This document shows, one piece after another, positions 39,491 to 39,856 of a stretch of 64,000 bases of DNA. The stretch covers positions 34,782,001-34,846,000 of the forward strand of contig OZ024751.1 of NCBI GenBank assembly GCA_964016885.1, in the 5' to 3' direction. Position 1 is the stretch's first letter. Each line of letters begins with the position of its first letter. This DNA comes from Eledone cirrhosa. Its lineage: Eukaryota. Under the pieces are notes generated by a model that was given only the letters and a program-made list of their open reading frames with translations, was not told the origin of the DNA and did not search any database. A program made the translations under genes and the position numbers.

Positions 39491-39492
<2 letters not shown>

Positions 39493-39856
39493 AAGGTTTA
39501 GTAAATAATGAAAAAGTTTCAAAATAAATTTTAAAAAATTGACTTTACCTACTATAGTTACCTTTACCGATCGGTTTCGAATCCCAAAAATAAAACGGAG
39601 ACCATACGGCCTTCGTTGCAACGAAAGATTCTCGTCAGAAGGTTCTTTTCATTCAAAGAATATAAAATTCCTGAATTTAAATCACAAACTAGCGCTATCA
39701 AAAACTGTTCCTGGGATGAGAGTGGATGATGTAGAACAGGTTTATCAAGGGCCGTAGCAAAGATAGAGGCAAAAGGAGGTAGGTCAAACTAGCCACCGCT
39801 ATTGCTAGCAGCAGTCGGAATGACCCGGTTTGTTCTCAACGTTAGTGGAGGTAGTA
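39491..39856 (-). mobile_element. Hammerhead-bearing short element, family B, between (TA)n arrays
   Basis: Unique ~365-bp island flanked by TA repeats and carrying an intact hammerhead core. No sequence similarity to family A. Confidence 0.55.
39560..39643 (-). ncRNA. Type I hammerhead ribozyme with an enlarged, branched loop II
   Basis: ACCUU-CUGACGA-GAAUC[~43 nt including hairpin UUCGUUGCAACGAA]GAUUC-GAA-ACCGAUCGGU-A-AAGGU. Core is canonical with G10.1-C11.1, a GUA site and a 10-nt palindromic stem III. Confidence 0.85.

Follow-up and report, generated by a model that had tools for sequence, protein, structure and literature searches.

Hammerheads in Penelope-like elements and in retrozymes are already known, and the finding reported here is not categorically new. 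Retrozymes, which are tandem and circle-forming, have been traced to the ends of Penelope elements, according to the accessible parts of two studies (Cervera and de la Pena, 2020, PMC7229834; Li et al., 2026, bioRxiv 10.64898/2026.07.22.740005). As described there, metazoan non-LTR retrozymes are non-coding units of a few hundred bases with a GC content below 50%; they contain one type I hammerhead per unit, are common as solo copies and have consensus lengths of 51–972 bp. In the Hydra clade of Penelope-like elements, type I hammerheads lie near the 3' end and (TA)n is the target, as far as the available text and supplement of Craig et al. (2021, PMC8557442) go; Neptune and Naiad elements likewise favour microsatellites (PMC8557442, same parts). 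Pseudoknotted hammerheads belong to all three types and make up about 40% of representatives in the accessible part of Perreault et al. (2011, PMC3088659). 

The locus described here shares the short non-coding unit, the single type I hammerhead and the solo occurrence with the retrozymes, and the hammerhead position near the 3' end and the (TA)n target with the Hydra clade. It lies in 64 kb of microsatellite-rich animal DNA (the window, i.e., the whole stretch that was analysed), which may be of cephalopod type to judge from one repeat. A first-pass annotation had described a ~365-bp island in TA arrays; the island measures 366 bp and sits between two such arrays.

39491..39856, minus: repeat island, partial copy, 366 nt, no coding sign
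36421..39489, no strand: (TA)n array, presumed target, adjoining the 3' end of the island
39857..40006, no strand: (TA)n, short and degenerate, adjoining the 5' end of the island

By blastn, no second or tandem copy was found within the 64-kb window, i.e., the island is solo. We consider it fairly probable that it represents a 366-nt partial copy of an abundant repeat with a type I hammerhead, likely a non-coding, Penelope-dependent retrozyme of about 483 nt that would cut itself between 39565 and 39564, by prediction mainly as a dimer.

Several other features were observed in the window. A short repeat with a compact hammerhead, termed family A, is present in two copies (29060–29105 and 41716–41760, plus strand), with U-U at the base of stem II, a 4-bp stem II and a 6-nt palindromic stem III; by eye it matches Hydra-type rows in the part of File S2 of PMC8557442 that was available, and next to the copy at 41.5–41.9 kb, parts of its own ends are repeated in inverted orientation. 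The island had been called unrelated to family A, in agreement with a blastn search of the island against the window, which left family A unmatched, and with a gap-ridden forced alignment. A second two-copy island (32460–32640 and 42447–42568; 88.6% over 123 bp) starts at (TA)n and shows, by eye, a hammerhead-like word order on the minus strand, in which the core is altered in either copy. Very long (TA)n arrays extend over 32637–39489 and 49965–58440, and the (TA)n interruptions switch from G to C on the plus strand near 33,800–33,850, as in a head-to-head inversion. An 860-bp island inside a TA array (35549–36410) has a very CpG-rich 230-bp end (36180–36404), a structured stretch (36060–36165) and no Rfam match near the gathering score; as a guess, it may be a LINE 5' end. 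Broken non-LTR retrotransposon frames on the plus strand (20542–22965; RVT_1 with E 1.4e-22 and a weak zf-RVT) are unlinked to the island at 39491–39856. Additionally, GC-rich, strongly skewed minisatellites occupy 1438–7672 and 15005–17267 (42-bp period x 148 and 22-bp period x 101).

The hammerhead motif

A type I hammerhead motif is present on the minus strand at 39560–39643. A scan of both strands of the 64-kb window for the core and three helices returned this locus alone, in two rows with the same core and alternative downstream triplets. The motif comprises C3–A9, G12–A14, A15.1–U16.1 and H17 in a three-helix junction with stem I open, which defines type I.

39639..39643, minus: stem I, 5' strand
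39632..39638, minus: catalytic core C3–A9 (CUGACGA)
39625..39631, minus: stem II, 5' strand, 7 bp with 39579–39585, G10.1-C11.1 at the base
39579..39585, minus: stem II, 3' strand
39566..39578, minus: core G12–A14 and 10-nt palindromic stem III (A15.1 = 39575, U16.1 = 39566)
39564..39565, minus: predicted cleavage site, 3' of A17 of GUA (A17 = 39565), from the hammerhead consensus
39560..39564, minus: stem I, 3' strand

Most of the first-pass description of the motif was reproduced on the minus strand: five Watson-Crick pairs in stem I (39643–39639/39564–39560), CUGACGA at 39638–39632, GAAA from 39578, the 10-nt palindrome (39575–39566) and the GUA triplet. The 5-bp stem II starts at 39631/39579 with Watson-Crick pairs, as proposed, and two further U-G pairs extend it to 7 bp; the loop II of ~43 nt is 43 nt inside the 5-bp stem. 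The cut position proposed earlier, between 39565 and 39564, agrees with the prediction from the hammerhead consensus. Two statements went too far. Three perfect helices are an overstatement, since stem III of the monomer can have only 3 bp and a tetraloop (a fourth pair would leave a 2-nt loop). "Fully canonical" is too strong as well: the 5-bp stem I, the 7-bp stem II and the palindromic stem III constitute a Penelope-type architecture (PMC4209133; PMC8557442, File S2), for which activity is predicted to depend on dimerisation or on a tertiary clamp.

The helices and core had also been judged unlikely by chance, and the shuffles bear this out. A strict descriptor, with thresholds set to the stem lengths of the island hammerhead itself, gave 0 matches both in 100,000 dinucleotide-shuffled versions of the island and in 300 versions of the window that were shuffled block by block, compared to 1 real match in 64 kb. 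With a relaxed descriptor, 0.03 matches per shuffled window were expected and 2 were observed. Fold stability alone is no evidence, because the free fold had unremarkable shuffle z-scores, namely −1.63 for the island and −0.69 for a 96-nt stretch. Three pattern matches in metagenome contigs and two in viral contigs were rejected as chance, as they span 15–22 letters only and lie in unrelated GC-rich DNA.

In Rfam, the window had no match at the gathering score and the island none at E up to 10. Among the best 150 of 270 matches in 32000–41000, only microRNA-type and other weak ones were found, on TA arrays. The long insert probably defeats the Rfam hammerhead models, which missed family A as well; the island hammerhead exemplifies a class missed by Rfam.

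Variation among copies and the stem II arm

Copies of the repeat were examined in contigs of four public runs (X1, X3, X6, and X7, out of 11 listed), mapped on the island; X6 and X7 contribute a small share of words and cover part of it. In X1, 562 distinct contigs match, which marks a high-copy, dispersed repeat, although depth gives no copy number.

Loop II had been described as branched, with its own palindromic hairpin. Instead, the predicted arm is an unbranched rod, which consists of the 7-bp stem, a pyrimidine-rich internal loop and an inner hairpin with a 4-bp and a 5-bp helix; with the hammerhead stems fixed, the inner helices have pairing probabilities of 0.89–1.0.

39618..39624, minus: internal loop, 5' strand, with the private G39622; candidate partner of the purine tail
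39594..39617, minus: inner hairpin of the rod (4 bp, mismatch, 5 bp, GUAU loop), P 0.89–1.0
39586..39593, minus: internal loop, U-rich 3' strand, read from the sequence

As modelled, loop II is an interrupted extension of stem II without a branched domain; the branched fold is 4.8 kcal/mol worse (−10.1 vs. −14.9 kcal/mol). The 14-nt palindrome at 39612–39625 does exist, but its pairs have P ≤ 0.002 when the hammerhead stems are fixed. A functional branched loop II, e.g., as a second dimer contact, could draw on a self-duplex of this palindrome (−20.3 kcal/mol) and is nevertheless very improbable. The palindrome needs G39622, which is absent from nearly all other copies in all four runs: X1 carries another letter at depth 30,702 of 30,728, and the G is replaced in every covering contig of X3, X6, and X7. 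Together with its energetic cost, copy variation that favours the competing inner hairpin (39601 turns G-U into G-C in two X1 contigs) brings the branched reading close to refuted. The palindromic hairpin of the first-pass annotation is an accident of one copy, resting on one private base. This base is also predicted to favour misfolds: in a 190-nt fragment, stem II has a probability of 0.50, compared to 0.93 when G39622 is barred from pairing, and in the island the respective values are 0.02 and 0.28. Furthermore, a one-letter deletion at 39592 was found in X1, X6, and X7 contigs.

Three additional structures were predicted outside the hammerhead.

39781..39826, minus: 5' hairpin with a GNRA-type tetraloop cap, pair P > 0.85
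39651..39676, minus: upstream hairpin, 10 bp and one bulge, ending exactly at the start of the purine tail; P 0.9–0.99 for 8 of 10 pairs
39493..39564, minus: 3' rod, in which the 74 nt after the cut fold back (−12.9 kcal/mol); the element ends at the rod foot

In the 5' hairpin, 39806 and 39801 change together from A-U to G-C in record 9 of X3 and in one X1 contig; the variant at 39795 keeps its pair and that at 39797 breaks one. In the upstream hairpin, 39672 and 39656 are compensatory in record 11 of X3, 39671 turns G-U into A-U, the bulge at 39655 varies, and 39675 breaks a pair. The 3' rod is predicted to recapture the 3' strand of stem I by pairing it with 39497–39493; variants at 39549 and 39548 turn G-U into A-U and one at 39532 breaks a pair.

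The tally of variants started from 26 rows, of which four (39557, 39564, 39569, and 39578) were seen solely in one X6 contig and were set aside. This contig, at depth 2.3, combines a core change with a break in the palindrome and is either a dead copy or an error. The remaining 22 sites comprise nine unpaired positions, G39622 and 12 helix positions. Nine of the helix variants keep the pair (four as two double changes, in one contig each, and five others) and three break it. None of the 22 falls in the core or stems I–III, where about 2.7 were expected by hand arithmetic, a result that is weak by itself. The structure-keeping variation gives moderate support to the fold model, and not more, because the model was derived from the window sequence, the register of two pairs in the upstream hairpin was picked after the variants were known, and transitions from G-U to Watson-Crick pairs are easy changes.

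Conservation of the helices among copies had been named as a test of the motif, and stem II shows a double change in a diverged subfamily; stems I and III are unchanged among the copies except in the low-depth X6 contig. The subfamily was pieced together from loose ends in records 10 and 11 of X3, taken here as neighbouring pieces of one diverged copy type, and the lengths fit if its inner hairpin is ~3 nt longer. By eye, pair 3 of its stem II changes from A-U to G-C and pair 7 is broken, whereas pairs 5 and 6 tolerate changes on one side and still form; in the inner helix, C-G becomes U-A and the mismatch becomes G-C. Additionally, record 10 shows an apparent one-base insertion in loop III at 39570, which yields 4 bp and a triloop and could allow folding as a monomer.

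A further element adjoins stem I.

39644..39650, minus: purine tail GAAAAGA, 7 nt, directly 5' of stem I; candidate pseudoknot or triplex strand; single-stranded P 0.81–0.99

The tail had no variant in any of the four runs and is complementary, antiparallel and in fixed register, to 39624–39618, i.e., to the 7-nt 5' strand of the internal loop that directly follows stem II. Five of seven positions pair in the window copy (−0.3 kcal/mol), six with the majority letter (−2.3 kcal/mol) and all seven in the X3 subfamily (−5.0 kcal/mol); by composition alone, the respective probabilities are 0.03, 0.004, and 0.0002, for a pairing that was found after the fact, in three related versions and between two low-complexity strands. 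Only 1 of 360 island 7-mers reaches six of seven pairs. The change in pairing is confined to one strand, with no double changes. These data make it conceivable, though somewhat unlikely, that the purine tail enters the pyrimidine-rich internal loop of the extended stem II and pairs with its 5' strand, possibly forming U-A-U triples with the U-rich 3' strand. The candidate pseudoknot would be weakened in the window copy. ENE triplexes contain U-A-U base triples; similar triples with the U-rich strand are possible but unsupported.

If the clamp exists, it would keep stems I and II in a parallel arrangement and give the long arm a function in the ribozyme, and it might explain more generally why hammerheads of Penelope-type elements can have long arms. 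A search of titles and abstracts of the hammerhead literature (octopus; long stem II; pseudoknot/triplex), which covered few subscription papers and may have missed a published example, returned no description of such an arm or clamp. The long rod, the 10-nt dimer palindrome and the natural series of five, six, and seven of seven pairs provide a small, direct test of how useful rates arise without the usual loop-loop contact and why Penelope and retrozyme hammerheads are kept.

Cleavage, copying and identity of the element

The active monomer fold was predicted to account for about 1% of the ensemble of the 84-mer and for under 0.01% in the whole island. In a double hammerhead, the palindrome would provide a 10-bp intermolecular stem III; its energy of −54.0 kcal/mol, in which tertiary contacts are ignored, compares with −54.8 kcal/mol for the best dimer fold and −43.8 kcal/mol for two monomers. 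Cutting is thus predicted to proceed mainly as a two-copy double hammerhead. The island is a solo copy with a private, fold-weakening base and is, therefore, probably a poor ribozyme at 39491–39856.

It is also conceivable, with low probability, that the motif serves as a protein-binding or folding signal that rarely cuts itself, and that cleavage needs a Penelope protein or is dispensable for copying. The scarcity of the active monomer fold and the intact cut site of the window copy agree with such a role. Moreover, minimal Penelope ribozymes cut poorly in vitro, according to the accessible part of PMC4209133, and the ribozyme of an anole element was cut only with protein added, cleavage being unneeded for insertion in vitro (PMC11167929). 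However, the perfect core and the 10-nt palindrome yield a near-optimal double hammerhead, and the subfamily contig (record 10 of X3), with an apparent 4 bp and triloop, would be foldable as a monomer; both speak against this reading.

The length of the unit was deduced from X3 record 9, a contig of 513 nt whose ends overlap by 30 letters and thus close a 483-nt cycle. It covers 39503–39856 and 39491–39532 with 117 unseen letters between, and differs from the window copy at 7 positions (98% alike). The cycle comes from one contig of depth 13.8 in a run labelled as another organism, and can represent a circle or units arranged head to tail; partial-tandem ends of a full element can also produce such a cycle in an assembly. 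At the 3' boundary, the loose end of the diverged copy in X3 record 10 has TA at the identical position, and eight X1 contigs continue past it into non-TA sequence.

No coding capacity was apparent. The longest open reading frame of the island (74 aa) gave no Pfam match or protein relative, within the 366 nt seen of a unit with 117 nt unseen; for this frame, a comparison with 39 longer candidates found no relative, which is weak evidence. A 54-aa frame had no Pfam match, and frame-breaking indels occur at 39700 and 39734 in other copies. Neither a reverse transcriptase nor a GIY-YIG single frame was detected within or adjoining the island, the upstream parts of other subfamilies being unseen. 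A SINE-type promoter was rejected, as the A/B-box-like words had one mismatch and an unconvincing order. For the 366 nt seen, the island is accordingly a short non-coding unit with one type I hammerhead, as in non-LTR retrozymes.

The same island might instead stem from an autonomous Penelope-like element of Hydra or Neptune type, as the 3' end (pseudo-LTR) left by 5' truncation; the ribozyme would then process the long retrotransposon transcript, and partial-tandem ends would have produced the 483-nt cycle in the assembly. We regard this as rather unlikely. The summed depth in X1 falls steeply from 160,362 near the 3' end (minus strand) to 1,124 at the 5' end. This slope is in line with 5' truncation, although subfamilies whose sequence diverges upstream of 39690–39711 drop from the alignment and confound it. 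Several different upstream continuations were found at 39690, 39703, and 39711, which also suits a truncated element. In animal genomes, the majority of Penelope ribozymes occur as solo motifs that belong to truncated elements, as stated in the accessible part of PMC4209133, and stem III, the TA target and the 3' position are of Hydra type. On the other hand, record 9 of X3 leads from 39856 back to 39491 in 117 letters, too few to accommodate a reading frame. The lack of Pfam and protein matches for the 74-aa frame (the protein search being weak) likewise argues against a truncated coding element, as do the conserved hairpins, which lie 240 nt upstream of the cut and include a double change. 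The retrozyme and the truncated-element readings can both hold, for different subfamilies.

The (TA)n target, the 4+2+4 stem III with GUA and a canonical-core hammerhead near the 3' end match the Hydra clade. Membership in the Naiads was rejected, as these carry no canonical hammerheads in the available part of PMC8557442.

For a Penelope-dependent retrozyme, the following course can be proposed. Tandem copies would be transcribed into a multimer, in which neighbouring palindromes would form the 10-bp stem III, and the long stem II rod would be held beside stem I, possibly by the purine tail when it pairs with the internal loop. The RNA would be cut into unit-length pieces, which could be circularised. 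A Hydra- or Neptune-type Penelope protein would nick (TA)n and begin reverse transcription at an internal position of the RNA, where the 3' rod has its foot 74 nt downstream of the cut site. The Penelope-like enzyme from anole nicks AT-rich DNA and copies uncut RNA, with internal initiation in a stem-loop that lies about 85–92 nt beyond the site of the ribozyme cut (PMC11167929). As the window copy crosses the cut site, its template would have been an uncut multimer or a re-ligated circle, and the fixed 3' end 74 nt past the cut bears on the question of copying from uncut RNA versus circles. Copying would usually halt early and leave solo partial copies such as the island.

Comparison with known systems

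The following comparisons refer to the accessible parts of the cited papers and supplements. Stem I has 3–7 bp in most Hydra rows and stem II up to 8 bp with wobbles (PMC8557442), similar to the island. A near-palindromic 4+2+4 stem III, as in the island, occurs in 6 of 26 Hydra rows, five of them with GUA (PMC8557442, File S1/S2). Loop 2 measures 3–10 nt in the 26 rows, whereas the island has 39 nt inside its 7-bp stem, i.e., the internal loop and the inner hairpin (PMC8557442). Unlike autonomous Hydra elements, the island has no attached reading frame (PMC8557442), and its short motifs gave no sequence match in the available supplement of that paper.

Compared to retrozymes, the unit of 483 nt is longer than the tested circles of 170–400 nt, and the island lacks the retrozyme-type 6-bp helix I and 4-bp helix II with the usual loop-loop contact (PMC7229834; bioRxiv 10.64898/2026.07.22.740005). 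The tandem arrangement is a retrozyme trait (PMC7229834), of which the island repeat offers a possible sign in one cyclic contig.

Minimal Penelope hammerheads (Cervera and de la Pena, 2014, PMC4209133) share with the island a helix I of 4–5 bp, a helix II of 7–8 bp and G10.1-C11.1, as well as the palindromic helix III and the dimer model. The island differs from them by its longer palindrome (10 nt), the missing extra nucleotide between 9 and 10.1, and the helix II rod.

A long loop 2, as in the island, was also found in the spike-moss rows of PLE-X1 (35 and 29 nt by our own count), which are marked as deviating in File S2 of PMC8557442. By eye, the 35-nt loop 2 of PLE-X1_sMoe holds an inner hairpin, similar to the island, and the strand after its stem II could pair over five bases with the tail 5' of stem I, in a clamp-like manner (File S2). 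Unlike the island, PLE-X1 comes from a plant, targets 28S rDNA and is unrelated in sequence, and the table gives no pseudoknot (PMC8557442).

In pseudoknotted hammerheads (PMC3088659), pairing between elements of stem I and stem II replaces the loop-loop contacts, as the candidate clamp would do in the island. There, mostly in microbes, the partner is a terminal loop or a tail; in the island, the candidate partner is an internal-loop strand seven pairs up stem II.
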